From positions 1 through 18,872 of IMG/VR virus record IMGVR_UViG_2663763227_000001: a DNA stretch of 18,872 bases. The stretch is one strand, 5' to 3'. Both the position numbers and the translations under genes were made by a program. Under the pieces are notes generated by a model. That model was not told the origin of the DNA and searched no databases. It saw only the letters and a program-made list of their open reading frames with translations. This stretch comes from a virus (taxonomy: Duplodnaviria; Heunggongvirae; Uroviricota; Caudoviricetes). Below are positions 1 to 16,848 of this stretch, one piece after another (position 1 is the first letter of the stretch; the number at the start of each line of letters is the position of its first letter).

Positions 1-104
1 GGGTTACCCCCAAACGAATCGGAAAATCGATACTGGAAAAACTCTAACTCGGTGGCCAGTTTTTGTTGACCACTTCAGTCAGACGAAGCGCGACTGGCTC
101 TCGA

Positions 105-662
105 ATGGAAAGCGCGATGGGGAGATCGGGCTGCATGACTATCAAATCAAATACGCCAGCACACGACAAGGACTGCTGGCAAACGCCGCTTTGGCTTTTT
201 GATGCACTGGATATTGAGTTTGGATTCTGGCTGGATTCGGCAGCGAGCGACAAAAATGCTCTGTGCGCTCACTGGCTAACTGAGGACGACGACGCGCTCA
301 ATTCTGAGTGGGTAAGCCACGGTGCAATCTGGAATAACCCACCGTACAGCAATATCAGGCCGTGGGTGGAAAAAGCCGCTGAGCAGTGTATACAACAGCG
401 ACAGACGGTAGTGATGCTTGTGCCAGAGGATATGTCTGTCGGATGGTTCAGCAAGGCTCTGGAGAGTATTGACGAAGTTCGCATCATCACTGATGGACGG
501 ATTAATTTTATCGAACCATCGACAGGGCTGGAGAAGAAGGGAAACAGCAAAGGTTTCATGCTGCTGATTTGGCGACCGTTCATCAGTCCTCGACGGATGT
601 TTACTACCGTATCCAAAGCAGCATTGATGGCGATCGGGCAGGGCGTCAGGAGGGCGGCATGA
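105..662 (+). CDS. Phage-type DNA N6-adenine methyltransferase (Dam family); start ambiguous (ATG at 105, 117 or 135)
   Basis: Translation contains the N6-adenine MTase motif IV NPPY (...[11 protein letters not shown]...) and the W-x-TP-x-W-LF N-terminal signature of small phage Dam proteins. Sits in the nin region. The ORF track extends to a TTG at 63; a GGAG lies about 12 nt upstream of ATG 135. Confidence 0.8.
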
Positions 663-841
663 GGCGACAGCGACGAAGTATCACCGACATAATCTGCGAA
701 AACTGCAAATACCTTCCAACGAAACGCTCCAGAAATAAACGCAAGCCAATCCCAAAAGAATCTGACGTAAAAACCTTCAACTACACGGCTCACCTGTGGG
801 ATATCCGGTGGCTTAGAGAACGTGCGAGGAAAACAAGGTGA
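659..841 (+). CDS. ninE: NinE-like small basic protein (60 aa)
   Basis: ATG at 659 overlaps the Dam stop (ATGA). Basic 60-aa product [18 protein letters not shown]... matches the size and character of lambda NinE from memory, and the position before ninF fits. Not verified by search. Confidence 0.5.
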
Positions 842-1017
842 TTGACCCAAATCGAAGTTACGAACAACAAAGCGTCGAGCGGGCTTTAACGTGCGCTAAC
901 TGCGGTCAGAAGCTGCATGTGCTGGAAGTTCACGTGTGTGAGCGTTGTATATATGAATGCTTAAATATGGTGGAACATAATGAGAAATATAAGCAACATA
1001 GACGAATTAAGAAATAA
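838..1017 (+). CDS. ninF: NinF-like zinc-ribbon protein, 5' portion with altered C-terminus (reading frame runs into the HNH insertion)
   Basis: GTG start at 838 overlaps the ninE stop (GTGA). Translation ...[26 protein letters not shown] carries a CxxC-x17-CxxC zinc ribbon. After codon 948 the sequence turns AT-rich and the frame continues as [22 protein letters not shown] to a stop at 1015-1017. Missed by the ORF track (59 aa). Confidence 0.5.
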
Positions 1018-1486
1018 ATTATCATATGATGATGTTTTAGGTGTACTTAGATGGAAAGTGTCTCCTTCTAATAATGTTAAGGTTGGCAGTGTTGCTGGTT
1101 ACATTAGGAGTGATGGTTATAGGATGTTAACTATCGATGGTGTAATTACTTATGCTCACCACGTTATATGGATGATAAATAATGGTGAGATTCCATTAGG
1201 GTATAAAATTGACCATATAAATGGAGTAAGGTCAGATAATAGGCTATCTAATCTTCGATTGGTTACACACCAACAGAATGCACAGAACCAAAAGAGAAAA
1301 ATAACCAATTCGTCAGGAGTGACTGGAGTATATTTCAATAAAGAGAGATGCAAGTGGATTGCGAATATATGCGTAGATGGGCGCACCAAATATCTTGGAA
1401 TATTTGCTAGCATCATTGACGCTATTGCAGAAAGGAAGAGGGCAGAAAAAGAACTGGGTTTTCATGAAAACCATGGCAGACCATAA
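980..1486 (+). CDS. HNH homing endonuclease (HNH_3 catalytic motif plus C-terminal AP2-like DNA-binding domain)
   Basis: Catalytic motif IDHINGVRSDNRLSNLRLVTHQQN; C-terminal SGVTGVYFNKERCKWIANICVDGRTKYLGIF resembles an AP2 domain. The gene is markedly AT-rich against about 50% GC flanks and lies inside the ninF reading frame. Confidence 0.85.
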   Translation: MRNISNIDELRNKLSYDDVLGVLRWKVSPSNNVKVGSVAGYIRSDGYRMLTIDGVITYAHHVIWMINNGEIPLGYKIDHINGVRSDNRLSNLRLVTHQQNAQNQKRKITNSSGVTGVYFNKERCKWIANICVDGRTKYLGIFASIIDAIAERKRAEKELGFHENHGRP

Positions 1487-1487
1487 C

Positions 1488-1547
1488 TGCGCAGAACTGA
1501 TGAGCGATCCGAATAGCTCAATGTACGAGGAAGAAGACGATGAGTGA
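1488..1547 (+). pseudogene. ninF: Displaced 3' remnant of ninF (encodes CAELMSDPNSSMYEEEDDE-stop)
   Basis: Directly after the HNH stop (1484-1486) a short frame reads CAELMSDPNSSMYEEEDDE then TGA. This is the expected continuation of the NinF C-terminus following the zinc ribbon, as recalled for lambda NinF. It has no start codon of its own. Confidence 0.4.
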
Positions 1548-1719
1548 TGTTAAAGAAAAAGATATCCCCGGCTTTGAGGGTATATATAAAGTAACTGAAA
1601 ATGGAGACATCATTTCATGCCGTAAATCAAAAAAATTATCTCATGGCATTAAACCAGGAGGATATGCATTTGTCGGTCTGTATCCAGGTGGCGGGAAAAG
1701 GGAGGGGATTGATGTTTAG
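1540..1719 (+). pseudogene. NUMOD4-like N-terminal domain only (59 aa); probable truncated remnant of a second homing endonuclease
   Basis: MSDVKEKDIPGFEGIYKVTENGDIISCRKSKKLSHGIKPGGYAFVGLYPGGGKREGIDV parallels the N-terminus of the 14449 HNH gene ([12 protein letters not shown]...GGYLFVGL) but stops before any catalytic motif. AT-rich. ATG overlaps the ninF-remnant stop. Confidence 0.35.
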
Positions 1720-1987
1720 AAGCAAAAAATGGCTTCAGGCAGTCAGGGATATTGAATTTTGCGTTCTTTGCGGAAGATACGGAGTTCAGGCCGCTCACAG
1801 AAATGAAGGGAAGGGGGTTGGGATTAAAGTAGATGATTGCCTTACTGCTGCGCTATGTGTTGATTGTCATTCAAGAATTGATAATGGAAGAGATATGAGC
1901 AGGGAAGAGCGAAGGGCTGAAATGGATCGGGCCATTGTGCTTACCCTTAAAAAATTGGTTAACAATGGGAGGGTGTTTGTCCAATGA
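1712..1987 (+). CDS. YbcO/DUF1364-like putative nuclease (His-Me finger type), 91 aa
   Basis: Motif FCVLCG...AAH...LCVDCHSRIDNG (CxxC...AH...CxxCH..ID) as in the E. coli DLP12 YbcO family. Strong SD GGGAGGGG 3-6 nt upstream of ATG 1712. Sits directly before rusA as in DLP12-type nin regions. The ORF-track start at 1601 is probably an upstream extension. Confidence 0.7.
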   Translation: MFRSKKWLQAVRDIEFCVLCGRYGVQAAHRNEGKGVGIKVDDCLTAALCVDCHSRIDNGRDMSREERRAEMDRAIVLTLKKLVNNGRVFVQ

Positions 1988-2346
1988 ACGAATATCAGTT
2001 TGTGCTTCCATACCCGCCGTCGCTGAATACCTACTGGCGAAGAAGGGGAAGCCAATACTACATCAGCGATAAAGGCCAGAAATACCGAAAAGATGTACAG
2101 CAAATAATCCGCCAACTCAAGTTAGACATTTTCACCAAATCACGACTCCGCATCAAAGTCATCGCAGACGTTCCAGACTCCCGCCGCCGCGACCTCGATA
2201 ACATCCTGAAAGGTTTACTCGACTCGCTTATCCACGCCGGATTTGCGGAAGACGACGAGCAATTCGATGACATTCGCGTAATTCGTGGTGTGAAAGTACC
2301 AGGCGGAAGGCTTGGAATAAAAATCACCGAACTGGAGAACGTATGA
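1984..2346 (+). CDS. rusA: Holliday junction resolvase RusA
   Basis: 120 aa; MNEYQFVLPYPPSLNTYWRR...DSRRRDLDNILKGLLDSLIHAGF...GGRLGIKITELE aligns along its length with E. coli RusA (same length, conserved RRRDLDN and GGRL). Start overlaps the previous stop (ATGA). Confidence 0.9.
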   Translation: MNEYQFVLPYPPSLNTYWRRRGSQYYISDKGQKYRKDVQQIIRQLKLDIFTKSRLRIKVIADVPDSRRRDLDNILKGLLDSLIHAGFAEDDEQFDDIRVIRGVKVPGGRLGIKITELENV

Positions 2347-2486
2347 ACAAAGCATTCGAACGATATATGCGCCAGCGTTATGGCAATCGCTATGACCTGA
2401 CGCGAGATGTTGAAGGATTCTACTGTCGTGAAATTGTGAAACGAATGTTTGAAGTTTGGTGTCATTGCAAAGGATGGGAGGTCTGA
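2343..2486 (+). CDS. Small YlcG-like protein (47 aa) between rusA and Q
   Basis: ATG 2343 overlaps the rusA stop (ATGA); its stop TGA 2484-2486 overlaps the next ATG (TGATG). A small ORF occupies this position in DLP12 (ylcG). Below the ORF-track length cutoff. Confidence 0.45.
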   Translation: MNKAFERYMRQRYGNRYDLTRDVEGFYCREIVKRMFEVWCHCKGWEV

Positions 2487-3100
2487 TGCGGTTAACTCCA
2501 GTATACAGCATGGTTAACTTCATTAATGACGCGCACTTTCGCCGCGTATGGAGACATCCGAAGAAAACCATCAACTCTAGCCAGAAAGCATGGGTTCATT
2601 ACATGTTACAGGTATGGGGCAAGGTTAACGCCGGAGATTGCTCTCCTGGTGGTGCAATTAACGTTATCGGTCGCCTGATGATTCGCAGTCAGTGGAGCGA
2701 TGACAAGGCTAAGCAGATAGAGTCTGTCGTCATGCGCCTGTACGAAGAAGATGGGCTGCGCGGAGATGAGCTATACAAGAAAGCTCGCGAACTGGTCATT
2801 CCTCAATCATCGTTTAGCCACATCATCACTCTCGCCAAAGAATCAGATGATGCGGCTTTCGTTGAACGTGTGATGGTCAAGACTTTTCACCGTGAAAGCC
2901 CCGTCCGCGATGTAGCTATTAAGCGATATTGCAATCGCAATTGCACGCAAGATATAGCCAGGATGATTTCTTATATAACAGGTGCTGATATTCAGTATTG
3001 TCGTAAGCGAGTGGTGTGGTGTGAGAAAGTGCTGGAGTCAGAAATGTTTTATGCAATGAAACGAGAATTGGAGAAAGAATTTCCATTAATAGCGGCCTGA
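2486..3100 (+). CDS. Putative late-gene antiterminator Q (not the lambda Q type)
   Basis: Positional call: last gene of the nin block, directly upstream of the late leader and lysis cassette. SD GGGAGG 4 nt upstream of ATG 2486. Cys cluster CNRNC...C-x6-C near the C-terminus; N-terminal region loosely resembles 82/933W-type Q proteins. No similarity to lambda Q as remembered. The ORF-track start at 2456 is a TTG extension. Confidence 0.55.
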   Translation: MRLTPVYSMVNFINDAHFRRVWRHPKKTINSSQKAWVHYMLQVWGKVNAGDCSPGGAINVIGRLMIRSQWSDDKAKQIESVVMRLYEEDGLRGDELYKKARELVIPQSSFSHIITLAKESDDAAFVERVMVKTFHRESPVRDVAIKRYCNRNCTQDIARMISYITGADIQYCRKRVVWCEKVLESEMFYAMKRELEKEFPLIAA

Positions 3101-3123
3101 ACTGAAATAATTTTGTAAATGCG

Positions 3124-3152
3124 TTGCTTCCGAGAAATGAAAGTGGTATTTT
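3124..3152 (+). promoter_or_regulatory. Candidate late promoter (PR'-like): TTGCTT -35, 17-nt spacer, TG-extended -10 TATTTT
   Basis: TTGCTT at 3124-3129, TGg at 3144-3146, TATTTT at 3147-3152. Lies between the Q stop and the terminator at 3259-3290, which would give a transcript of about 130 nt. Weak consensus match; placement is by analogy with lambda PR'/tR'. Confidence 0.3.
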
Positions 3153-3258
3153 TCGTATATGCTCGGAGCAAAAGCGAACTGAGCAGCGAAATTGAAATCC
3201 TGATTTCCCCGGTTGTCGATAATATTTAGGGTCGACATACTGGCTAGATTAGGTAAGA

Positions 3259-3290
3259 GCCTCGGCATAAACGTCGGGGCTTTTTTGTTT
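3259..3290 (+). terminator. Intrinsic terminator, tR'-like (end of short late leader RNA)
   Basis: Hairpin GCCTCGGC / ATAAAC loop / GTCGGGGC (8 bp including two G-U pairs) followed by TTTTTTGTTT. The sequence just downstream (GCACAACAGGTAAGAGCATTGA) resembles the lambda region downstream of tR', from memory. Confidence 0.6.
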
Positions 3291-3718
3291 GCACAACAGG
3301 TAAGAGCATTGAACCCGCAGACCTCGCGGAATTGGCGAAAGGTGCCGCGCAGTGCTCTTATCGTTGTGGTGAAGCTCAATGGCGAGCTAGCAGATAGGCG
3401 ATAGTGAAAATACTAGTCATGTAGCTGACCGCCGCGCGTACTGCAATCGGCAGCGCACCGATGGAAGCCGGTTCGATTCCGGCTGCCACAACCCAAACTG
3501 AGCCGTAGCCACTGGCTATCCTAGATTCATCAGTGATAGTTATGCTGCGGCCTTCTACACATGACCTTCGTGAAAGCGGTGGCAAGAGGTTGCGCTAACA
3601 ACCTCCTGCCATTTTGCCCGTGCATATCGGTCACGAACAAATCTGATTACTAAACACAGTAGCCTGGATTTGTTCTATCAGTAATCGACCTTATTCCTAA
3701 TTAAATAGAGCAAATCCC

Positions 3719-3744
3719 CTTACTGGGGGTAAGACATGAAGATG
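3719..3744 (+). promoter_or_regulatory. S-gene translational control element: sdi-like hairpin over the SD plus dual-start motif ATG-AAG-ATG
   Basis: CTTAC (3719-3723) / TGGGG loop / GTAAG (3729-3733) immediately upstream of ATG 3736 and ATG 3742. This is the lambda S107/S105 antiholin/holin dual-start arrangement. Confidence 0.6.
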
Positions 3745-4059
3745 CCAGAAAAACATGACCTGTTAGCCGCCATTCTCGCGGCAAAGGAACAAGGCATCGG
3801 GGCAATCCTTGCGTTTGCAATGGCGTACCTTCGCGGCAGATATAATGGCGGTGCGTTTACAAAAACAGTAATCGACGCAACGATGTGCGCCATTATCGCC
3901 TGGTTCATTCGTGACCTTCTCGACTTCGCCGGACTAAGTAGCAATCTCGCTTATATAACGAGCGTGTTTATCGGCTACATCGGTACTGACTCGATTGGTT
4001 CGCTTATCAAACGCTTCGCTGCTAAAAAATCCGGAGTAGAAGATGGTGGAAATCAATAA
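3736..4059 (+). CDS. S: Holin S (lambda class I holin; S107 from ATG 3736, S105 from ATG 3742)
   Basis: 107-aa translation [45 protein letters not shown]... is nearly identical to lambda S as remembered. Confidence 0.95.
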
Positions 4060-4519
4060 TCAACGTAAGGCGTTCCTCGATATGCTGGCGTGGTCAGAGG
4101 GAACAGATAACGGACGACAGAAAACCAGAAATCACGGTTATGACGTCATTGTTGGCGGAGAGCTATTCACTGATTACTCCGATCACCCTCGCAAACTTGT
4201 CACGCTAAACCCCAAACTCAAATCAACAGCAGCCGGACGTTACCAGCTTCTTTCCCGTTGGTGGGATGCTTACCGTAAGCAGCTTGGCCTGAAAGACTTC
4301 TCTCCCAAAAGCCAGGACGCTGTTGCGCTGCAGCAGATTAAGGAGCGTGGCGCTTTACCGATGATTGATCGCGGTGATATTCGTCAGGCAATCGACCGTT
4401 GCAGCAATATCTGGGCTTCACTGCCGGGTGCTGGTTATGGTCAGTTCGAGCATAAGGCTGACAGCCTGATTGCAAAATTCAAAGAAGCTGGCGGAACGGT
4501 CAGAGAGATTGAGGTATGA
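4043..4519 (+). CDS. R: Endolysin R (lambda-type lytic transglycosylase)
   Basis: 158 aa; [51 protein letters not shown]... is nearly identical to lambda R. Start overlaps the end of S. Confidence 0.95.
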
Positions 4520-4974
4520 GCAGAGTAACCGCGATTATCTCCGCTCTGGCTATCTGCATCATCGTTTGCCTGTCATGGGCTGTTAATCATTACCGTGATA
4601 ACGCCACCGCCTACAAAGAGCAGCGCGATAACAAGGCCAGTGAACTGGAGAAGGCGAACGCCACCATCGCTGACATGCGGAAGCGTCAACGTGATGTAGC
4701 AGAACTCGACGCAAGATACACAAAGGAGCTTGCTGATGCTAACGCGACTATCGAAAGTCTCCGTGCTGATGTTTCTGCTGGGCGTAAGCGCCTGCAAGTC
4801 GCCGCCACCTGTGCAAAGTCAACGACCGGAGCCAGCGGCATGGGCGATGGAGAAAGCCCAGGACTTACAGCAGATGCTGAACTCAATTATTACCGTCTCC
4901 GAAGTGGAATCGACAAGATAACCGCGCAGGTTAACTACCTGCAGGAATACATCAGGACGCAATGCCTGAAATGA
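4516..4974 (+). CDS. Rz: Spanin inner-membrane subunit Rz (i-spanin)
   Basis: N-terminal TM segment [30 protein letters not shown] matches lambda Rz, followed by a coiled-coil periplasmic domain; the C-terminal half diverges from lambda. Start overlaps the R stop (ATGA). Confidence 0.9.
4736..4921 (+). CDS. Rz1: Spanin outer-membrane lipoprotein Rz1 (o-spanin), embedded in the +1 frame of Rz
   Basis: ORF lies wholly inside Rz in another frame. Signal peptide [20 protein letters not shown] with lipobox-like VSAC, then a proline-rich mature part [22 protein letters not shown] 7 nt upstream of ATG 4736; the ORF-track start at 4730 is TTG. Confidence 0.75.
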
Positions 4975-5009
4975 TCGGGCGATGAAAACCAAAAAAACAG
5001 GAGCAATAC

Positions 5010-5285
5010 ATGACTAAGTTTTATCACCGCATCTCAACTTTTCTCTCTGGTTGCTGGGTGTTTATCACGTCTATTTCGTTCGCCATCTTTAGTTTCGGTA
5101 GCACAGCGTGCTCGCTTAGTCGGGGTCTGTGGCGTGCTATTTCAGCACTAGCGCCGAAATTTTTACCTGAAAAGGCTGTTTGGCGAATTGTAGAGCGAAT
5201 GTGTAGTGAGAGCGTTCGCGAGAAGATTAACGTATTTGGACGTTATCCTCGAAATACAGGCGCATTGTGCAGTCCGTTACTGTAG
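5010..5285 (+). CDS. Hypothetical small membrane protein (91 aa)
   Basis: AGGAG 8 nt upstream of ATG 5010. One predicted hydrophobic segment (FLSGCWVFITSISFAIFSF). No recognised homolog; sits between the lysis cassette and packaging genes, a typical cargo position. Confidence 0.35.
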   Translation: MTKFYHRISTFLSGCWVFITSISFAIFSFGSTACSLSRGLWRAISALAPKFLPEKAVWRIVERMCSESVREKINVFGRYPRNTGALCSPLL

Positions 5286-5579
5286 TCATCACAAAGCCTA
5301 TCTACGGGTGGGCTTGATAATGAAACCGGAATTTATTCTGGGCAACCAGTTACGGCAGTACAGCGAAACAACCCAAGCCAGTAAGTGGGGAAATAACACT
5401 GGCAGCCACTGAAAGATGAACCTCCAGCCTTATGGCAAAAAAGATTCTTTGTGGTGGCGGACTGATGGAAAGACATCGGTTATTGCAGAGACCATTCAAT
5501 GAGTGGTCTCGACAATGGCTTATACCCTACACGGGATAACTTAACTGATATCCCTTTTAACGGATAAACGGAGCCAACA

Positions 5580-5822
5580 ATGGCAGAGATTATTCCCATG
5601 ACTGAAGAACAGAAATTCCAGTTAGAGATTTACAAACTGGTCATGAACCAGAACGCAGCCGCAGAAGAAGCATTTCAATTCATTGGCACTGACGAGCTGA
5701 AGCTTGAGCTATTCAAAATTCACTTCCAGTCAGGCGGCGCTAATTCAGATATCACGATCCGCACACTTGAAGCGGTGCGTAAATCTAAGGAAGCGTTAGA
5801 CCTGTTCACTACCGGAACATGA
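5580..5822 (+). CDS. Hypothetical protein (80 aa)
   Basis: SD ACGGAG 8 nt upstream of ATG 5580, preceded by a hairpin plus T-tract at 5533-5558. Acidic, helical-looking product; no recognised family. Confidence 0.5.
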   Translation: MAEIIPMTEEQKFQLEIYKLVMNQNAAAEEAFQFIGTDELKLELFKIHFQSGGANSDITIRTLEAVRKSKEALDLFTTGT

Positions 5823-5823
5823 T

Positions 5824-6003
5824 GTGAGCCGCGTAATCAATTTGGGTAAGGAGAAGAAATTCCCAATTACTCAAGAGCTATACGAGCGGCTTGAAAGCGT
5901 CATCCATGATTACGATGGTGAAATAAGTTTATGCGAGGCGATTGGCACACTCGAATTGCTGAAGCAGTCACTGATTGAAGGCGCGAAAGAGTCCTCAACC
6001 TGA
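5824..6003 (+). CDS. Hypothetical small protein (59 aa; GTG start uncertain)
   Basis: Open frame from GTG 5824 (just after the previous stop) to TGA 6001-6003, ending 23 nt before terS. No strong SD for the GTG. Below the ORF-track cutoff. Confidence 0.25.
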   Translation: MSRVINLGKEKKFPITQELYERLESVIHDYDGEISLCEAIGTLELLKQSLIEGAKESST

Positions 6004-6026
6004 AATGACAATTAAGTGAGATAAAT

Positions 6027-6449
6027 ATGGCGACTGAACCAAAAGCTGGTCGCCCCTCTGATTATATGCCGGAGGTGGCTGACGATATCTGCTCGTTGCT
6101 TTCTTCTGGCGAAAGTTTGCTGAAAGTATGTAAGCGTCCTGGTATGCCGGATAAGTCCACTGTTTTCCGCTGGTTGGCAAAGCATGAGGATTTTCGCGAC
6201 AAGTACGCGAAGGCAACTGAGGCGCGAGCTGATTCTATTTTCGAAGAGATATTCGAAATTGCTGACACTGCGATTCCAGATGCTGCTGAGGTGGCAAAGG
6301 CAAGACTTCGCGTTGATACCCGCAAATGGGCGCTGGCCCGAATGAATCCCCGTAAGTATGGCGACAAGGTAACTAACGAGCTTGTCGGCAAAGACGGCGG
6401 CGCAATCCAGATTGAAACATCACCGATGAGCACTCTATTCGTAAAATGA
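6027..6449 (+). CDS. terS: Terminase small subunit (Sf6 gp1-like TerS, 140 aa)
   Basis: MATEPKAGRPSDYMPEVADDICSLLSSGESLLKVCKRPGMPDKSTVFRWL... matches the Sf6-type small terminase from memory (same length, N-terminal HTH-like DNA-binding region). Directly upstream of terL. Confidence 0.9.
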   Translation: MATEPKAGRPSDYMPEVADDICSLLSSGESLLKVCKRPGMPDKSTVFRWLAKHEDFRDKYAKATEARADSIFEEIFEIADTAIPDAAEVAKARLRVDTRKWALARMNPRKYGDKVTNELVGKDGGAIQIETSPMSTLFVK

Positions 6450-7861
6450 CCTCGATTAATCCTATCTTTGAACCGTTCATTGAGGCGCATCGCTACAAAG
6501 TTGCCAAAGGCGGTCGAGGTAGCGGTAAATCATGGGCAATTGCGAGGCTGCTTGTTGAAGCGGCGCGTCGGCAGCCAGTGCGTATTCTCTGCGCTCGTGA
6601 ACTGCAAAACAGTATCAGCGATTCGGTAATCCGGTTGCTTGAAGACACCATAGAGCGTGAAGGGTATACGGCTGAGTTTGAAATTCAGCGTTCTATGATT
6701 CGTCATCTCGGAACGAATGCTGAATTCATGTTCTACGGCATAAAAAACAACCCGACGAAGATTAAATCGCTCGAAGGCATTGATATCTGCTGGGTTGAAG
6801 AAGCGGAAGCGGTAACGAAGGAATCGTGGGATATCCTGATTCCAACCATCCGTAAGCCGTTCTCTGAAATATGGGTAAGTTTCAACCCGAAAAACATCCT
6901 CGACGATACCTATCAGCGATTCGTCGTAAATCCTCCCGATGATATTTGTCTGCTGACGGTGAACTACACCGACAATCCGCACTTTCCTGAAGTTCTCCGT
7001 CTGGAGATGGAAGAGTGTAAACGCAGAAATCCGACACTGTATCGTCACATCTGGCTTGGTGAGCCAGTAAGCGCAAGTGATATGGCAATCATCAAACGTG
7101 AATGGCTTGAAGCTGCTACCGATGCGCACAAGAAACTCGGATGGAAAGCGAAAGGCGCTGTTGTCTCTGCGCATGACCCGTCAGATACAGGGCCAGATGC
7201 TAAAGGTTACGCATCGCGTCACGGTTCGGTGGTTAAGCGCATTGCCGAAGGTCTGCTGATGGACATCAACGATGGTGCTGACTGGGCTACTTCGCTGGCG
7301 ATTGAAGACGGCGCTGACCATTACCTGTGGGATGGTGATGGTGTTGGTGCCGGGCTACGCAGACAGACAACGGAAGCGTTCTCCGGCAAGAAAATCACCG
7401 CTACGATGTTCAAGGGCAGCGAATCGCCATTTGATGAAGATGCACCATATCAGGCCGGAGCATGGGCTGATGAAGTCGTGCAGGGCGACAACGTTCGCAC
7501 TATTGGCGATGTATTCCGCAATAAGCGAGCGCAATTCTATTACGCGCTGGCTGACAGGCTGTATCTGACATATCGGGCGGTTGTCCACGGTGAGTATGCA
7601 GACCCCGACGACATGCTGAGTTTCGACAAAGAAGCGATAGGCGAGAAGATGCTGGAGAAGCTGTTTGCAGAACTGACGCAGATTCAGCGCAAATTCAATA
7701 ACAACGGGAAGCTGGAGCTAATGACTAAGGTCGAAATGAAGCAGAAGCTAGGTATTCCATCTCCTAACCTGGCTGATGCGTTGATGATGTGTATGCATTG
7801 CCCTGAGTCGGCTGCGCAACCCGACTATTCCAGTTACTCAATTCCTTGTGGTGTAGGTTGA
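6446..7861 (+). CDS. terL: Terminase large subunit (ATPase/nuclease; Sf6 gp2 / P22 gp2-like)
   Basis: 471 aa; Walker A KGGRGSGKS near the N-terminus and an acidic nuclease-like C-terminal domain. Start overlaps the terS stop (ATGA). Length and synteny match P22/Sf6 TerL. Confidence 0.95.
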   Translation: MTSINPIFEPFIEAHRYKVAKGGRGSGKSWAIARLLVEAARRQPVRILCARELQNSISDSVIRLLEDTIEREGYTAEFEIQRSMIRHLGTNAEFMFYGIKNNPTKIKSLEGIDICWVEEAEAVTKESWDILIPTIRKPFSEIWVSFNPKNILDDTYQRFVVNPPDDICLLTVNYTDNPHFPEVLRLEMEECKRRNPTLYRHIWLGEPVSASDMAIIKREWLEAATDAHKKLGWKAKGAVVSAHDPSDTGPDAKGYASRHGSVVKRIAEGLLMDINDGADWATSLAIEDGADHYLWDGDGVGAGLRRQTTEAFSGKKITATMFKGSESPFDEDAPYQAGAWADEVVQGDNVRTIGDVFRNKRAQFYYALADRLYLTYRAVVHGEYADPDDMLSFDKEAIGEKMLEKLFAELTQIQRKFNNNGKLELMTKVEMKQKLGIPSPNLADALMMCMHCPESAAQPDYSSYSIPCGVG

Positions 7862-7862
7862 T

Positions 7863-10061
7863 ATGGCAGAAAAAAAGATGACTGACTGGCATCGCAAGGT
7901 GCTGTGCAACTTTGATAATGCCTGGTCAGCAACGCAGGATATGCGTGAGCAGATTATTGAGGCTCAACGTTTCGTCCGGGTGTCCGGCGCACAGTGGGAA
8001 GGCAGCACAAACGCTGGTTACTCATTTGATGAAGGTAGGTTTGAGCATTACCCGCGCTTTGAACTAAATAAGATTGCCCGTGAATGTGATCGCATCATTG
8101 GCGAGTATCGACAGAATCGCATCAGCGTTAAATTCAGGCCGAAGGACGATAAGGCATCGGAAGCGTTAGCCGAAAAGATGAACGGCAAATTCCGCGCTGA
8201 CTATCAGGAAACATCCGGTGGCGAAGCGTGTGATAACGCATTTGATGATGCTGTAACGGGCGGATTCGGTTGTTTCCGCATGTGTGCCGATTACGAAGAT
8301 GAAATGGATCCGAGTAACGAGCAACGCCGTATAAGCCTTCTCCCTGTTTACGACCCAGCGACATGCGTCTTCTTTGATCAGGACAGCAAGCAATATGACC
8401 GCTCTGATGCTATGTGGGCTATGGAAATGTTCTCCATGACGCCTAAAGCGTTCGAGGCTGAATACCCTGATTCCATCGCGGCAAGCCTTTCTCGTGATGA
8501 CACTGGCACTCAATATGACTGGTCAACGCCCGATGCCATCTATGTTGGACGCTACTACGAAGTTCGCATAGAGAAGGTGAAGCTCACGGCGTGGCGCAAC
8601 CCTGTTAGCGGAGAAACGGCAATCTATGATGAAGAGCAAATCAAAGATGTTGTCGACGAGCTAACCGATGGCGCATTCGAACTGATTGGTGAGCGAACGG
8701 TGAAGAAACGCCGCGTTTATTGCGGCCTTCTGTCTGGCGCTGAATGGCTGGAAGAACCGAAGCGTATTCCGGGCGAACATATTCCTCTCATCCCGGTATA
8801 TGGGCGTCGTTCATTTGTTGATAATCAGGAGCGAATCGAAGGCCACGCAGCAAAAGCGATGGATGCACAGCGTCTTGAGAACCTGATGGTTTCCATGATT
8901 GCAGATAACGCCACTCAGGCTGGCGGTGATGGTATTCCTGTAGTTGATGTTGACATGATTCCTGGTCCTCTCGCCACTCATTGGGCGGAGCGCAACAAAA
9001 AGCGCCCGGCGTTCCTGCCGATGGTCAGTCTGAAAAACAAAAACGGAGATATTACTGCGCAGGCTCAGGTCAGCAGTTATACACCTCCAACACAAATGCC
9101 TCCTGCTCTTGCCGGGCTATTACAGTACACCGGAACGGCTATTCAGCAAATTACAGGTGCGTCGCAGCTTGAGAACATGCCGAGCAACGTCGCTACCGAT
9201 ACCGTTGATAGCATCTTTAACAGGATGGACACGCAGTCATATATCTACATGGACAACATGGCTAAATCCATGCGTCGCGCTGGCGTTGTGTGGCTTTCTA
9301 TGGCGCGTGAGGTCTATGGCAGCGATACGCCAATGCGCATCGTTAATGAGGACGGCAGCGATGACGTGGCGCTGATGACTGGTGAAGTGGTTGACCGTCA
9401 GACAGGGCAGGTTATCGCGCTTAACGACCTTTCGCAGGGTAACTATGAAGTGACTGTCGATGTTGGTCAGTCGTTCGCTACTCGCCGTGATGCAACGGTT
9501 AAGTCGTTACTTTCCATGCTGGCACTTATCCCGCCTGGAACGCCGAAACACGACCTTGTGTCGTCTCTTATTCTCGACAATATGGACGGCGAAGGGATGG
9601 ACGACCTTAAAGAATACAACCGCAATCAGTTGCTTCTGTCTGGCGTTATCAAGCCGAAAACGCCAGAAGAACAGCAAATGGTTGAGCAGGCGAAACAACA
9701 ACAGGCCAGTCAGCCAGATCCGGCTATGGTTGCTGCGCAAGGTCAGCTTCTTGCTGGTCAGGCTGAATTGCAGAAAGCGCAGAACGAACAGGCAGCCATT
9801 CAGGTTAAAGCATTCCAGGCACAGACTGATGCTCATGTTGCAGCGGCAAATGTTGTGAAAATCCTCGCATCTGCCGATAGCCAGCAGAAATCTGATATCC
9901 GCGAGGCTCTGAAACTGCTCGGACAGTTCCAGCAACAGCAAGGAGACAATGCCCGTGCTGATGCAGAGCTTGTCCTGAAAAGTCAGGCGCAGGGACATGC
10001 ACAACGCATGGACATCAGCAGCATCCTGCAAAAATCAACTCAGCAACAACCACAGCAGTAA
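7863..10061 (+). CDS. Portal protein (P22 gp1-like, with C-terminal Gln-rich helical barrel)
   Basis: 732 aa; segments GRYYEV, GEHIPLIPVYG, KTPEEQQMVEQAKQQQ...DPAMVAAQGQLLAGQAELQKAQN and NARADAELVLKS...QRMDISSILQ align with P22 portal gp1 as remembered, including the long C-terminal barrel helix. Confidence 0.95.
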   Translation: MAEKKMTDWHRKVLCNFDNAWSATQDMREQIIEAQRFVRVSGAQWEGSTNAGYSFDEGRFEHYPRFELNKIARECDRIIGEYRQNRISVKFRPKDDKASEALAEKMNGKFRADYQETSGGEACDNAFDDAVTGGFGCFRMCADYEDEMDPSNEQRRISLLPVYDPATCVFFDQDSKQYDRSDAMWAMEMFSMTPKAFEAEYPDSIAASLSRDDTGTQYDWSTPDAIYVGRYYEVRIEKVKLTAWRNPVSGETAIYDEEQIKDVVDELTDGAFELIGERTVKKRRVYCGLLSGAEWLEEPKRIPGEHIPLIPVYGRRSFVDNQERIEGHAAKAMDAQRLENLMVSMIADNATQAGGDGIPVVDVDMIPGPLATHWAERNKKRPAFLPMVSLKNKNGDITAQAQVSSYTPPTQMPPALAGLLQYTGTAIQQITGASQLENMPSNVATDTVDSIFNRMDTQSYIYMDNMAKSMRRAGVVWLSMAREVYGSDTPMRIVNEDGSDDVALMTGEVVDRQTGQVIALNDLSQGNYEVTVDVGQSFATRRDATVKSLLSMLALIPPGTPKHDLVSSLILDNMDGEGMDDLKEYNRNQLLLSGVIKPKTPEEQQMVEQAKQQQASQPDPAMVAAQGQLLAGQAELQKAQNEQAAIQVKAFQAQTDAHVAAANVVKILASADSQQKSDIREALKLLGQFQQQQGDNARADAELVLKSQAQGHAQRMDISSILQKSTQQQPQQ

Positions 10062-10151
10062 TTAACCCATAACGTGCAATGGCTGTCTTTATGAGGCCTG
10101 GCACCCTATTGCCTTCCGATGGGCTGAACATCGAGTAAACAGGGGTAACAA

Positions 10152-11048
10152 ATGGACCAGATGGCAGAAAACACACCAGAAGTTGAAATCGAAACCGACG
10201 CGTCAGAGCAGATTCCTGATGATGTCAAACTGGCTGAAGAAGTCGAAACAGAAGATGGCAGTGAGTACTCCGGCAATGATGCAGAGAAAGCTACTGAAAC
10301 TGATGACGACGAATCAGAACAGGAATTCTACTTTGGTGACGAAAAGCTGGATTCGCCAACCAGCGAAGATGGCGCAGAGCATGGACTGGTAAAACACCTG
10401 CGCAAGACGATTAAAGAGAAAGACCGTGAGCTGAAAGAGCTGATGCGTCAGTCTCAGAAACCCGTCGAGCAGCAGCCGGTAATCACTCAACCACCTCGAA
10501 TGCCAAAACTGGATGATGAGGACATTGGTTTCGATGAAGAAATCTACCAGCAACGCATGGCTAAGTGGGCAGAGGATAACGGCAAGTACCAGCAACAGGA
10601 GATGGCTCGCAAGCAGAAGGAGCAGGAGCTTCAGGCTGCCTATCAAGAGCGATTATCCAAATATCAGCAACGTGTTAAGGCTCTCAAAGTTCCTGGCTAT
10701 CAGGAAGCTGAGCAGGCCGTACTCGAGGAAATCCCCATCGAGACACAAAACGCGATCCTGTTTGAGTCAGAGAAGCCGGAAATCGTTGTTCTGGCGCTCG
10801 GTCGCAACGCTGAACTGCGCAAGAAACTGGCAGAAGCTACCAACCCCGTAGCAATTGGTCGTCTGCTGGAACGTATCGAATCGAAGGCCAGAATCATGCC
10901 AAAAGCAAAAACCACGGCAGCCACAACCCCGACAGTTAAGGGGAGCAACGGCGCAGTAATCAATAACCTCGACAAACTTCTCGAAAAAGCACGCGACACC
11001 GGTGATTACACCGAATACCGGGCGGCGAAGAACAAAGCTAAAAAATAA
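10152..11048 (+). CDS. Scaffolding protein (P22 gp8-like)
   Basis: 298 aa, highly acidic N-terminus, coiled-coil-rich, basic helix-turn-helix-like C-terminus (...DTGDYTEYRAAKNKAKK). Position between portal and coat as in P22/Sf6. Confidence 0.8.
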   Translation: MDQMAENTPEVEIETDASEQIPDDVKLAEEVETEDGSEYSGNDAEKATETDDDESEQEFYFGDEKLDSPTSEDGAEHGLVKHLRKTIKEKDRELKELMRQSQKPVEQQPVITQPPRMPKLDDEDIGFDEEIYQQRMAKWAEDNGKYQQQEMARKQKEQELQAAYQERLSKYQQRVKALKVPGYQEAEQAVLEEIPIETQNAILFESEKPEIVVLALGRNAELRKKLAEATNPVAIGRLLERIESKARIMPKAKTTAATTPTVKGSNGAVINNLDKLLEKARDTGDYTEYRAAKNKAKK

Positions 11049-11068
11049 TCCATCGGAGCTAAATACCT

Positions 11069-12328
11069 ATGTCTAACCAGTTAACCAAAGACCTCGAAAT
11101 CCTCTTTGAGAGCGTCATTGATAGTTTTGAGGCGTCCAATGTCGTTTCCCGCGAGTGCAGCAAGTTCCGACCGGGCGACATTGAAATGCAGCGCGCTGGC
11201 GACGTTGTTTATCGCCCTCAGGGCTACCACCTGAAAACCGTGAGCGGACTTGATCTGACTTCGGCCACTGCAAACTCACTCGTTCAGCGTCAGGTGCCTG
11301 CTCGCTTCCGCGAGCCAGAGAACGTCATCTACGAACTGGACGCAAAAGAAATGCGCGATCCGTGGCACAAAGAGCAGGCTGGCAAGGCGGCGGGTCGCCA
11401 GTTGGCGGCGTGGGTTGATAACATGATCGTCGATGAGGTGGTCGCTCGCTCCACCAACGTGGTCACCATTAAATCGGCGTCCACCGGTAGCACTCTCGGC
11501 GAAGAACTCTGGAACGCATCGGCTGACGTTGATGCAATGATGCTGTCCATTGGTGTGCCTCAGGGTGGTCAGCGCAAGGCGTTCTACAACCCGTTCAACT
11601 ACAAAGACCTGGCTAAGGAGCTTGGCTCTCGCGCATATGCGGTCGGTGCAACTCTGACAGCCTATGAGAAAGCTCAGATTCCACCTGTGGCATCCTTCGA
11701 CAGTTTCCGCGTTGATTATGCTGGCGCAATGAAGGCTGGTTCAGCTACCGCTGTAACTCTCGGCGGCGCAGTAAAACACAAAGTTACCGCGATGGATTCC
11801 AACGGCGCGCCTACCGATAACCGCCAGGGTGACATCACCGTATCCACTGCTGACGTACTGGCTGTCGGCGATGCATTCACTATCGCAGGCGTTAACAGTG
11901 TCCACATGATCAAGAAGGTGGATACAGGTAAGCCGCAGGTATTCCGCGTCCTGGCAGTAAATGGCACTACCGTTACCATCAGCCCGAAAATTCTGCCACC
12001 AGACAACGCGGATAAGGCGTCTATTCCTTACCAGAACGTTACCGCCAATCCGGTGGAAAACGCGGCGATCACCATCCTCAACAAGAAGGCTGCGGCTTCC
12101 AACATCTTCTTCGCTGAGGGTTCTGTTGAGCTGATGTATGGCAAGTTGGCATTCCCTACCGGCCAGGGTCCGCAGGTTATGACCGCAAGGACCGAGCAGG
12201 GTGCGACCATCATCATGGCTTACCAGTTCGACGCTAAATCTGGCAAAACGTGGACTCGCTTCACCACGCTGGCTGGCGCAAGCGTACTGGTCCCGGAATT
12301 CACCGGCCTGGTACTGGCTAACCAGTAA
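11069..12328 (+). CDS. Major capsid (coat) protein (P22 gp5 / Sf6 gp5-like)
   Basis: 419 aa in the expected position after the scaffold gene and followed by a strong intrinsic terminator; size matches P22-type coat proteins. Sequence similarity to P22 gp5 itself is not obvious by eye. Confidence 0.85.
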   Translation: MSNQLTKDLEILFESVIDSFEASNVVSRECSKFRPGDIEMQRAGDVVYRPQGYHLKTVSGLDLTSATANSLVQRQVPARFREPENVIYELDAKEMRDPWHKEQAGKAAGRQLAAWVDNMIVDEVVARSTNVVTIKSASTGSTLGEELWNASADVDAMMLSIGVPQGGQRKAFYNPFNYKDLAKELGSRAYAVGATLTAYEKAQIPPVASFDSFRVDYAGAMKAGSATAVTLGGAVKHKVTAMDSNGAPTDNRQGDITVSTADVLAVGDAFTIAGVNSVHMIKKVDTGKPQVFRVLAVNGTTVTISPKILPPDNADKASIPYQNVTANPVENAAITILNKKAAASNIFFAEGSVELMYGKLAFPTGQGPQVMTARTEQGATIIMAYQFDAKSGKTWTRFTTLAGASVLVPEFTGLVLANQ

Positions 12329-12333
12329 TCCAA

Positions 12334-12358
12334 GGGGCTTCGGCCCCTCTTTTTTTTT
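12334..12358 (+). terminator. Intrinsic terminator downstream of the coat gene
   Basis: GGGGC-TTCG-GCCCC hairpin (GC-rich 5-bp stem with a TTCG tetraloop) followed by TCTTTTTTTTT, 6 nt after the coat stop. Confidence 0.8.
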
Positions 12359-12368
12359 GGAGATCGAA

Positions 12369-12557
12369 ATGTCTCAAATCATGCTTTATAAGCCGGGATC
12401 GATGATCACCTGCGGCCCCCACTCGCTGGATTACATCATCGTTGATGACGAAGAAGTTAAATCTCACCTGAAAAAAGGCTGGGTAAAAACTCCTGAAGAA
12501 ACCGCAACGAAGCAAAAAGTGGCTAAGGCGGAAGAAGATGGCGAAAATGAAGGGTGA
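12369..12557 (+). CDS. Hypothetical small protein (62 aa) between coat and gp4-like genes
   Basis: ATG 12369 with GGAG about 7 nt upstream; C-terminal acidic tail; 3' end overlaps the next gene. The ORF track shows an upstream extension from 12201 that overlaps the coat gene and is unlikely. Confidence 0.45.
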   Translation: MSQIMLYKPGSMITCGPHSLDYIIVDDEEVKSHLKKGWVKTPEETATKQKVAKAEEDGENEG

Positions 12558-12999
12558 TCTCGTTCTAAAGGCTTTACGAAAAGCCGGGCTGTATTCCAAT
12601 GCCACGTTGACAGATGCTGACCCTCAGGCAATTGAAGATGCCATTAATGACCTCGAAGACATGATGGCAGCATGGCAGGCTAAAGGTATCGAGCTTGGAT
12701 ATCAGTTTGCTGATACAGAAAACGGCATCATGCCGTTACCTGACGATGATTCAGGTATCCCTGCATGGGCAAATGATGGCGTCGCTTTGAAACTCGCTGT
12801 GCAAGTGTGCATGGATAACGTCATTCAGCCGTCAGACGCTCTCCTTACCGCTGCTGACAGTGCATATCAGACAATCTGCATCGCTTTAACCAAAATACCA
12901 CCACTTGAGCGGCGAAATGACATGCCTCGCGGTAGTGGTAACAAAAGCGCGTTTACGTGGAATCGGTTTTACATCGAGAAAGATGATCCGAGTACGTGA
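12538..12999 (+). CDS. Head completion / tail accessory protein (P22 gp4-like)
   Basis: 153 aa; KGDLVLKALRKAG...TLTDADPQAIEDAINDLEDMMAAWQ...MPRGSGN parallels P22 gp4 (KGDLV, TLTD, DDLE-MMA-W, GSGN). Correct synteny. Confidence 0.85.
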   Translation: MAKMKGDLVLKALRKAGLYSNATLTDADPQAIEDAINDLEDMMAAWQAKGIELGYQFADTENGIMPLPDDDSGIPAWANDGVALKLAVQVCMDNVIQPSDALLTAADSAYQTICIALTKIPPLERRNDMPRGSGNKSAFTWNRFYIEKDDPST

Positions 13000-13008
13000 G
13001 GTGAATAA

Positions 13009-14427
13009 ATGCCGATTCAGCAACTTCCGCTTATGAAAGGTGTCGGCAAAGACTTTCGAAACGCCGACTATATCGACTATCTGCCAGTGAATATGCTGGC
13101 TACGCCCAAAGAAATACTCAACAGCAGCGGATATCTTCGCTCATTCCCGGGCATTGCCAAACGTTCTGATGTGAACGGCGTATCGCGGGGCGTCGAGTAC
13201 AACATGGCGCAGAATGCTGTTTATCGCGTGTGTGGTGGCAAGCTCTACAAAGGCGAAAGCGAAGTAGGTGACGTCGCCGGAAGTGGTCGCGTATCAATGG
13301 CGCATGGTCGAACATCTCAGGCTGTAGGAGTTAATGGTCAACTGGTCGAGTATCGCTATGATGGCACGGTTAAAACCGTCTCAAACTGGCCTACAGATCG
13401 CGGATTCACGCAGTATGAGTTAGGTTCGGTTCGCGACATTACACGCTTACGTGGCCGTTATGCGTGGTCAAAAGACGGAACTGATTCATGGTTCATCACT
13501 GACCTTGAAGACGAATCGCATCCTGACCGTTACAGCGCACAATATCGCGCAGAATCGCAGCCGGACGGCATCATCGGCATCGGAACATGGCGAGACTTCA
13601 TCGTCTGCTTTGGTTCATCGACGATTGAATATTTTTCCCTGACTGGGGCAACCACCGTTGGTGCCGCTTTGTATGTCGCACAGCCATCACTGATGGTGCA
13701 GAAAGGCATTGCCGGAACTTACTGCAAAACGCCGTTTGCTGATTCCTATGCTTTCATCAGCAATCCGGCAACAGGTGCGCCGTCTGTATACATCATCGGA
13801 TCCGGTCAGGTGTCACCAATCGCCAGCGCGAGCATTGAGAAAATCCTCCGCTCCTACACTGCTGATGAACTGGCTGATGGCGTGATGGAATCGTTGCGCT
13901 TTGATGCTCATGAGTTGCTGATTATCCACCTTCCGCGCCACGTCCTAGTATATGACGCATCTTCAAGCGCCAATGGTCCGCAATGGTGTGTGTTGAAAAC
14001 TGGCTTGTATGACGATGTGTACCGCGCTATCGACTTCATTTACGAAGGCAATCAGATAACGTGCGGCGATAAGCTGGAATCCGTGACCGGGAAATTGCAG
14101 TTCGACATCAGCAGCCAGTATGGGCTGCAGCAAGAACATATTTTATTTTCACCATTAATAAAGGCAGATAATGTCATTATTAATGACCTTGAATTAGAAA
14201 CATCAGGCGGCGTGTGTGATAGAATAGATAAAATATTTATATCAGCAACAACAGATGGAATAAATTACGGCAGGGAACAAATGGTCGTATTGCAATCTCC
14301 ATTTGTATATGACAATCGAGTCTTATGGCGCAGGATTGGAAGAGTTAGACGTCTCATCGGTTTTAAATTCAGAGTTATTGCAAAAGGCCCGGTTACATTA
14401 TCCGGACTGTCTATTCGTACAACATAA
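13009..14427 (+). CDS. Tail accessory / hub protein (P22 gp10-like); 3' ~300 nt compositionally AT-rich
   Basis: 472 aa, the same length as P22 gp10, in the correct position after the gp4-like gene. GC content drops sharply from about 14130 to the stop, continuous with the AT-rich HNH gene downstream. Confidence 0.9.
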   Translation: MPIQQLPLMKGVGKDFRNADYIDYLPVNMLATPKEILNSSGYLRSFPGIAKRSDVNGVSRGVEYNMAQNAVYRVCGGKLYKGESEVGDVAGSGRVSMAHGRTSQAVGVNGQLVEYRYDGTVKTVSNWPTDRGFTQYELGSVRDITRLRGRYAWSKDGTDSWFITDLEDESHPDRYSAQYRAESQPDGIIGIGTWRDFIVCFGSSTIEYFSLTGATTVGAALYVAQPSLMVQKGIAGTYCKTPFADSYAFISNPATGAPSVYIIGSGQVSPIASASIEKILRSYTADELADGVMESLRFDAHELLIIHLPRHVLVYDASSSANGPQWCVLKTGLYDDVYRAIDFIYEGNQITCGDKLESVTGKLQFDISSQYGLQQEHILFSPLIKADNVIINDLELETSGGVCDRIDKIFISATTDGINYGREQMVVLQSPFVYDNRVLWRRIGRVRRLIGFKFRVIAKGPVTLSGLSIRTT

Positions 14428-14448
14428 ATCGAAACTTAAGGAGTAGAT

Positions 14449-14994
14449 ATGTTAAGTGAAGATATTAGAGATGTAGTTGGTTATGAGGGGCTTTATGCGG
14501 TAACTCGTGATGGTAGAGTTTACTCTCACTCAAGGATAATAAATACATGCCATGGGGCTACTCGATTAATGAAGGGTAGATGGCTGAAGCCAGCAAAGGA
14601 TGGGGGCGGATATCTATTTGTTGGTCTCTGTAAGGATGGAGAGGTTAAACCAAAAAAAATACATCGAATTGTTGCTGAGGCATTTATTGAAAACAAAGAA
14701 TCTAAACCATTCATCAACCATATAGATAATAATAATCAAAATAATAATGTAGAAAATCTTGAATGGTGTACGCAACATGAAAACATGCAGCATTGCTCTA
14801 GAAGCGGTAGGGTGAAAATACCTCATTATGTGGGTTCTGAACATCCATCGTCCAAATTAAATGAAGATATAGTTCTGGTCATAAAAAATGATTTGATTAC
14901 GCCAATTAGCGAGTTAGCTGCAAGATATAATGTGACTGTTCAGGCCATACACGCCATTAAAAAAGGGAAGACATGGAGGCATGTGAATGGCTGA
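14449..14994 (+). CDS. HNH homing endonuclease (NUMOD4 N-terminal domain, HNH motif, C-terminal HTH)
   Basis: N-terminus [21 protein letters not shown]...GGYLFVGL (NUMOD4-like); [41 protein letters not shown] (HNH); C-terminal HTH-like segment. AT-rich. Excellent SD AAGGAG. Inserted between the gp10-like and gp26-like genes; its stop overlaps the gp26 start. Confidence 0.85.
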
Positions 14995-16143: not shown

Positions 16144-16145
16144 CC

Positions 16146-16838: not shown

Positions 16839-16848
16839 GGGGTAATCA

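Follow-up and report, generated by a model that had tools for sequence, protein, structure and literature searches.

A predicted late antiterminator gene of the phage 21 superfamily and its candidate promoter-proximal site, placed before a shared lambdoid lysis leader

The DNA analyzed here (the window) is a stretch of 18,872 nt, positions 1 to 18,872 of the IMG/VR record IMGVR_UViG_2663763227_000001 from a Caudoviricetes virus. Reading of its open reading frames (ORFs) together with profile scans indicated that it holds a late operon preceded by the right end of a lambdoid early operon. The region under study runs from the last gene of the nin region to the holin gene S (2486 to 3735) and carries a gene for a 204-aa protein, a candidate late promoter (PR'), an intrinsic terminator and a long leader. 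A preliminary description had proposed that the gene codes for a Q antiterminator unlike lambda Q and that a lambda-like leader follows it. Conservation was scored in 56 distinct loci from IMG/VR and GenBank (relatives at least 84% identical). The features up to the terminator are as follows.

2486..3100, + strand: predicted gene for a Q-like late antiterminator (204 aa), at the end of the nin region and ahead of promoter, terminator and lysis cassette
3124-3129, + strand: candidate PR' -35, TTGCTT; TTGC (3124-3127) is 96-100% conserved in the 56 loci
3131-3146, + strand: candidate Q-binding element (QBE) CGAGAAATGAAAGTGG, a 16-bp promoter spacer element at the position of the phage 21 QBE; binding is predicted
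3147-3152, + strand: candidate PR' -10, TATTTT; TACATT in most relatives
3158-3163, + strand: candidate sigma-dependent pause element (SDPE) TATGCT, -10-like, 100% invariant in the 56 loci
3164-3187, + strand: invariant block CGGAGCAAAAGCGAACTGAGCAGC of the predicted initially transcribed region; one position 71% and the rest 91-100% conserved in the 56 loci
3188..3254, + strand: variable short-leader segment with a central hairpin (3199-3253), missing from many relatives
3255..3290, + strand: predicted intrinsic terminator, equivalent of tR', from terminator scan and RNA fold

The ATG of the Q-like gene overlaps the TGA of the upstream ORF, and a ribosome-binding site (GGGAGG) is found at 2476-2481. 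Three Q families are recognized, PF03589 (lambda), PF06530 (phage 21) and PF06323 (phage 82), and lambda Q combines a helix-turn-helix (HTH) with a zinc ribbon (PMC9388147). The 204-aa protein has no match in Pfam and NCBIfam, and none of the three Q models was matched at E values up to 10. The canonical HTH body and zinc-ribbon arm of the lambda family were not found in it either, and the candidate is indeed unlike lambda Q, as had been proposed. PHROG 753 ('anti-termination protein Q-like') is matched over the full length (E 6.9e-68, residues 12-200 on positions 1-186 of the 189 in the profile). The family is a small one, since a search of 1.84 billion representatives found only 30 clusters (50% identity) with E <= 1e-3, and its members come from Enterobacterales phages and prophages.

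The phage 21 Q protein (Q21; PF06530; PDB 6P18, 6P19 and 6JNX; annotated record OL657228) was used for comparison. An AlphaFold model of the 204-aa protein (pLDDT 79, pTM 0.63) was searched against PDB with Foldseek, and the top 11 matches were Q21 chains (probability 0.94-1.0, target-normalised TM 0.57-0.69). The model shows the features of the Q21 fold, a sigma-region-4-like body and an interrupted helix-turn-loop-helix. A fold search of BFVD gave unnamed or sigma-like proteins. A PDB search with the single sequence returned spurious ERp29 matches only; when a 25-member family profile was run against 177,635 PDB sequences, Q21 was the sole match, in two collinear stretches (E 0.72, a value that is not significant alone). 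An hhalign comparison with Q21 gave E 9e-5 over the N-terminal 56 columns. Pfam adds a link through relatives. One relative at 56% identity scores 12.4 bits on PF06530 (cut-off 26). The 204-aa protein itself has no match to DUF1133 (PF06576) at E values up to 10, and its tie to DUF1133 runs through relatives alone: P0126 (37% identity) passes the DUF1133 cut-off (26.2 vs 23.1), P0144 and P0145 match both DUF1133 and PF06530, and Q21 itself scores 22 bits on DUF1133. DUF1133 proteins of Stx phages have been termed Q antiterminators from HHpred results (PMC8136144). Literature searches found no functional study of PHROG 753 or DUF1133, and those on the family of the 204-aa protein and on STM2239 yielded nothing relevant. 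Since the Foldseek, profile and Pfam links agree, we conclude that the protein is a highly divergent member of the Q21/DUF1133 superfamily.

By sequence alignment, the protein is longer than Q21 by about 20 residues at the N terminus and by about 50 residues inserted at the place of Q21 residues 45-58; the inserted part corresponds to model helices 72-88 and 93-104. The N-terminal extension is a family feature with a conserved R-R/K-x-W/Y motif, which is missing from Q21. In Q21 the H2/H2-H3 region forms a 'torus' (10.1101/651190), and the insertion appears to map to this nozzle-forming region. Profile scans found no other Q-type gene within the 18.9-kb window. Given the Q21 fold and the PHROG 753 match, the 2486-3100 gene plausibly codes for a non-lambda late antiterminator, as the preliminary description had suggested.

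Two observations concern homologs of the protein. P0144 (366 aa) and P0145 (379 aa) are fusions in which the Q-like/DUF1133 domain is preceded by an N-terminal HNH_3 endonuclease domain. The Q-like homologs of Pantoea phage PA-1 (L089 617-1231) and Yersinia phage vB_YenM_29.18 (L090 632-1234) are labeled 'class II holin' in GenBank, which is almost certainly a mis-annotation.

The conservation profile across the end of the gene sets off the candidate site. At the 3' end of the Q coding sequence conservation of third positions dips to about 48%. The 25 nt past the stop codon are 50-98% conserved, and 3132-3187 is 71-100% conserved except for a free position at 3139; within it, TATGCTCGGAGCA (3158-3170) is 100% conserved. 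Conservation collapses after 3187 and amounts to about 30-70% from 3194 on. In four phages with proteins 86-88% identical, the block just past the stop codon is kept and its flanks diverge. The gene and the 3124-3187 block are always adjacent and co-inherited. Q specificity predicts such a co-inherited promoter-proximal block, and the expectation that the functional site should match this type of Q agrees with the finding: 3124-3187 travels with the gene and is unlike lambda PR'/qut, its promoter activity being predicted.

The family consensus of the spacer element at 3131-3146 is CGCGAAATnGAAGTAG, 86-100% conserved outside the free position. The element itself contains an internal repeat (GAAAT/GAAGT, period about 6 bp) and sits at the place equivalent to the phage 21 QBE; its sequence is altered in relatives at 26-47% protein identity. 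A TG at 3144-3145 would make an extended -10 in the window only. Transcription is predicted to start at about 3157-3160. The relatives compared at 26-64% protein identity (Tbat2_3, Meifeng, PA-1, the Yersinia phage, Chris1, ST64B and ZF40) all keep TTGnnn-N17-hexamer followed 5 nt on by (T/C)A(T/A/G)GCT, and across them the spacer element changes in step with the protein. The pause-like element is thus present down to 26% protein identity, and in the Yersinia phage it is TAAGCT, as in phage 21. A stable hairpin with a T-run is found 62-195 nt (median 71) past TAnGCT in 61 of 62 distinct family loci. The order of a Q21-type late region, a pause element past the start and then an intrinsic terminator, is thus present at the level of sequence. 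A regulator gene adjoining a promoter, a -10-like repeat and a terminator is the signature of a Q cassette.

Three other readings of this sequence were considered and set aside. TATGCT could be the true -10; no -35 is found 16-18 bp upstream of it, and every relative has TTGnnn-N17-hexamer instead. Two GAGCA motifs, at 3166-3170 and at 3181-3185, are similar to the half-site TGAGCA of phage 21 and were examined as a Q-binding element. This was judged unlikely because they lie downstream of the pause element and Q21-type loading contacts upstream DNA, and because proteins about 86% identical carry either variant of the block that contains them. A leaderless mini-ORF from ATG 3159 to TGA 3182 (MLGAKAN) loses its ATG in the TAAGCT and TAGGCT variants.

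The invariant block at 3164-3187 is more conserved than the adjacent Q coding sequence and has no counterpart in phage 21, where the terminator begins at +3. Together with 3160-3163 it forms a predicted RNA hairpin (3160-3185) at the 5' end of the transcript. A second block variant, GCTCGGCAGTCAAAGACGAAAGAGCG, adjoins proteins that are still about 86% identical to the 204-aa protein; this speaks against the block as the specificity determinant. It might position a pause: from a start at A3159, C3175/G3176 would be +17/+18, with a G at -10 to the pause. Such an arrangement agrees with the elemental pause consensus. The block might instead act by forming the 5' hairpin.

The terminator, which had been placed near 3259-3290, was confirmed by terminator scan and fold at 3255-3290. 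The stem, AAGAGCCTCGGC/GTCGGGGCTTTT (3255-3266/3273-3284), encloses a loop of 6 nt, and the T-run at 3281-3286 is followed by GTTT (T-run to 3290). It is the sole + strand match of the terminator scan in 2900-3900 and the last hairpin of the RNA fold. For the predicted 134-nt RNA (3157-3290) the fold has three hairpins (z-score -5.5). The stem aligns only loosely with lambda tR' and is common to PhiR5_2, a phage with the same Q type that matches 3105-3594 at 89.9% (megablast).

Two mosaic boundaries, at about 3188 and about 3275-3290, are apparent from the alignments. Past 3187 there are several unrelated continuations among 55 distinct downstream sequences. The central hairpin of the window (3199-3253) is also found in the ENT47670 type, with compensatory changes at four base pairs between the types. 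Homology to the HK75/lambda-type leader begins at 3275, within the descending arm of the terminator, and the T-run starts a stretch that is collinear among HK75, lambda, PhiR5_2 and the window. The junction had been expected between 3100 and about 3260. The cognate site does stay with the Q gene and the junction does follow it, but the leader junction lies further on, at 3275-3290, and the boundary at about 3188 is an additional one.

Two side observations belong to this segment. The sole promoter-like match in 2900-3900 points leftward (3246-3219, minus strand, TAGCCA-N16-TATTAT) and sits in the loop region of the central hairpin, whose loop TAATATTTAG is conserved and whose stem covaries. 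The sequence GGTAAGAGC occurs twice, at 3251-3259 (5' arm of the terminator) and at 3299-3308 (5' arm of the leader hairpin); lambda pairs GTTAGAGCC and GGTAAGAGC in a like manner, and the terminator and leader hairpins may share an origin.

From the T-run to S the following features were recognized.

3292..3368, + strand: long leader hairpin, its stem conserved at the base and its tip hypervariable, from per-sequence folds; also in lambda (44790-44870)
3376..3490, + strand: leader segment shared with HK75 and missing from lambda, at the place of tRNA-Asn and tRNA-Thr in phage 21 and Sf6
3487..3735, + strand: lambda-like S leader, equivalent to bsq3 of CUS-3; 94.8% identical to lambda, fold z-score -4.5

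By megablast, 3275-3735 is 96.6% identical to HK75, PDP110P1 and other phages, and lambda matches 3487-3735 only (94.8%, lambda 44936-45185). A four-way alignment adds two stretches shared with lambda, GCACAACAGGTAAGAGCATTGA (3291-3312) and CAGTGCTCTT..CGTTGTG.TGAA (3352-3375); the lambda sequence is unrelated at 3313-3351 and 3376-3486. The resemblance to lambda that had been noted from the terminator to S holds for these two stretches and for 3487-3735. It does not extend to the terminator stem, 3313-3351 or 3376-3486, and homology is continuous from the tR' position to S only with HK75-type leaders. The second GC-rich hairpin of the preliminary description was found as described, at 3581-3592/3599-3610 and followed by ATTTTG (3611-3616). 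It does not qualify as a terminator (4 T in the tail) and is also present in lambda and HK75. A CCCC/GGGGG stem lies just before the dual-start S.

The base of the long leader hairpin is conserved: GCACAAC-A-GG-T-AAGAGCATTG pairs with CAGTGCTCTT-w-yC-GTTGTGs. Three outer-stem sequences are found and all of them pair (CACAAC/GTTGTG, GCGAAA..CTGG/CCAG..TTTCG and GCAATC/GATTGC), as judged from per-sequence folds, in which the three stem types bulge in different registers. Inner pairs show compensatory changes at 5 of 12. An exact-pattern scan found the lambda-type stem in at least 120 IMG/VR contigs. The 81 readable hairpin copies have 42 distinct tips of 31-56 nt, some with tRNA T-arm-like sequence. 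At least 900 nt of upstream sequence were available for 67 copies, of which 21 follow a lambda-type Q, 20 a Q21-type Q and four the Q type of the window (two more match both the latter and Q21); the other 20 have none of the three. The 'lambda-like leader' is thus a widely shared linker found behind lambda-Q, Q21-type Q and the Q type of the window. One contig (L109) has two copies of the hairpin about 470 nt apart. A search of Rfam at E values up to 1 gave no match for the leader except a 17-nt T-arm fragment, and a literature search on processing of the lambda late leader yielded nothing relevant. The hairpin may be an RNase III site or a recombination linker, which is a guess.

The segment at 3376-3490 looks like a decayed tRNA gene. 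It has a T-arm-like sequence GCCGGTTCGATTCCGGC (3467-3483) and a CCA-like end in register with the 3' end of tRNA-Thr, and intact tRNAs occupy the equivalent position in Tbat2_3, Meifeng and Mulock. ARAGORN detected no tRNA in the leader.

That the invariant block and the long hairpin at 3292-3368 are undescribed functional RNAs is a tentative idea, which we consider rather doubtful. If it is true, the block (+6 to +29) could add to the loading site a component that Q21 does without, e.g., a pause-positioning sequence or a nascent-RNA hairpin, and this component might be connected with the enlargement of the protein's nozzle region. The hairpin could then be an unannotated processing site (e.g., for RNase III) or a recombination linker of late operons.

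The neighboring genes fit the end of a nin region and the start of a late operon. The gene order on the nin side is Dam methylase, NinE, NinF, an HNH endonuclease, a NUMOD4 ORF, a DUF968/YbcO-like HNH protein, RusA, a 47-aa ORF and the 204-aa candidate. The candidate is followed by a lambda-type holin S, endolysin, Rz, an Sf6-type small terminase and the large terminase. The lysis genes are listed below.

3736..4059, + strand: holin S, lambda type, with a Met-Lys-Met dual start (PF05106); first gene of the late operon
4043-4519, following holin S: endolysin (PHROG 90)
4516-4974, following endolysin: Rz (PF03245)

The stretch 2340-3300 is 97.5-98.4% identical to prophages of 13 complete E. coli genomes, e.g., of strains E10 (98.4%) and O7:K1 CE10 (98.0%). 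In these genomes the candidate is annotated by PGAP as 'hypothetical protein'. Within the nin region, an HNH_3 endonuclease ORF (980-1486), a NUMOD4 ORF (1540-1719) and a second HNH/DUF968/YbcO-like ORF (1601-1987) may be homing-endonuclease insertions.

We put at about 75% the probability that the region is a Q-dependent late regulatory cassette of a P22/Sf6-like E. coli prophage, made of three exchangeable modules and working by a phage 21-like mechanism. From the sequences, their conservation, the mosaic boundaries and the similarity in fold we infer promoter activity, the start site, pausing, DNA binding and antitermination. Module 1 (2486-3187) would be the antiterminator gene with its cognate site, module 2 (3188-3284) a variable spacer with the terminator stem, and module 3 (T-run to S) a leader common to lambdoid phages of any Q type, probably joined by recombination within the conserved T-run/GCACAACAGGTAAGAGC linker. 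RNA polymerase would initiate constitutively at PR' and pause a few nucleotides on through renewed contact of sigma region 2 with TATGCT. From its site in the spacer, the protein would load onto the paused complex, travel along with it and block the formation of hairpins at the RNA exit channel. The modified polymerase would pass the terminator at 3255-3290 and the later terminator-like hairpins and transcribe the head genes as well as S, R and Rz. If the protein is missing, transcription would stop at 3286-3290 and yield a structured RNA about 130 nt long.

Several points weigh against this interpretation. The protein escapes the models of all three recognized Q families, and the sequence-level statistics are weak: the profile match to Q21 has the E value of 0.72 already given, and hhalign against Q21 gave a probability of 60%. 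The insertion sits in the presumed nozzle-forming region, so the mechanism may differ from that of Q21. The -35 and -10 of the window agree with the consensus at 7 of 12 positions (TTGCTT/TATTTT), which is poor, and a promoter consensus scan of 2900-3900 found no + strand site. The spacer element is not a clean 8+8 direct repeat as in the phage 21 QBE, and the block at 3164-3187 is not predicted by the Q21 model. Literature searches found no experimental evidence for any family member. A sigma-region-4-like protein next to a promoter with a weak -35 might be an activator that binds the spacer and offsets the -35 instead of a processive antiterminator, with the terminator only trimming basal transcription; we regard this as unlikely.

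Recognition could be partly or wholly at the RNA level. The nascent hairpin at 3160-3187 (GCUC...GAGC with a conserved AAAG/CGAA loop) would then be bound by the protein, perhaps through its basic N-terminal extension in the manner of lambda N on boxB, or be put-like. The invariance of the block in the 56 loci and the predicted 7-bp hairpin at the 5' end of the RNA speak for this, as do the GCTC/GAGC arms kept with other loops in Tbat2_3 and PA-1 (GCTT/AAGC in ST64B and OS31) and the R-R/K-x-W/Y motif in an extension that Q21 lacks. However, the stem has only 4 bp in the type-II variants (L021, L029 and others), and the block does not track protein specificity, with either variant found beside proteins about 86% identical. 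Moreover, Q21-type loading takes place at an RNA length of <=11-14 nt (10.1101/651190), before the hairpin could emerge. RNA-level recognition has in our view only a small chance of being right. Less probable still is that 2486-3100 is not a late regulator at all, that the controller lies outside the window, and that 3124-3187 is conserved for another reason, e.g., as a small RNA (sRNA) seed like that of StxS. The short, highly structured RNA that is predicted and the PGAP label of the protein would suit such a role, and PR'-derived short RNAs are able to serve as regulatory sRNAs (PMC7547250). Yet an sRNA role would be compatible with Q control and no alternative to it. The constant adjacency and co-inheritance of gene and block, the Q21 fold, the canonical Q position and the lack of an alternative Q gene in the window all argue against this reading.

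Textbooks and recent structural work list three Q families (PMC9388147). The protein belongs to a fourth sequence family, one that is missed by the Pfam Q models, and its predicted structure looks like a remodelled Q21. The insertion in the nozzle segment and the different sequence of the binding element would offer a natural test of how general the Q21 mechanism is. Late regulators and PR' sites could also be better annotated in P22-like and other enterobacterial prophages.

The closest known system is phage 21. Its PR' (OL657228) has a -35 TTGACA, QBEu ATTGAGCA and QBEd AATGAGCA in the spacer, a -10, the start, an SDPE (TAAGCTG) at +2 and a terminator. The window has the gene at the end of the nin region as well, and the same order of elements through TAnGCT to an intrinsic terminator; tRNA genes or remnants lie between terminator and lysis genes in both. 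The differences are considerable. The protein shares 11-16% identity with phage 21 Q and falls below the Pfam threshold, is 204 aa in length vs 162 aa, and has the N-terminal extension and the insertion of about 50 residues. The spacer element has another sequence with no 8+8 repeat, only 5 nt separate TAnGCT from the -10 (7 nt in phage 21), and the invariant block adds 24 nt that phage 21 does not have. The terminator is about 100-130 nt from the start instead of beginning at +3. With lambda the window shares S, R and Rz of the lambda type, GCACAACAGGTAAGAGCATTGA and the basal part of the long hairpin. Its Q protein is not related to lambda Q, and PR'/qut, the terminator stem, the hairpin tip and 3376-3486 all differ. 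In the annotation of CUS-3, the 241 nt before S are named bsq3 and the stretch from Q to the terminator bsq4 ('boundary sequences' of the Casjens type), and both mark the same recombination points as in the window. HK75 and CUS-3 differ from the window in what precedes the shared leader, namely a Q21-type Q and a PR', SDPE and terminator like those of phage 21. That the Q module of the window is followed by a lambda-like leader is a case of the ordinary mosaicism of lambdoid phages, at linker sequences that are already known.

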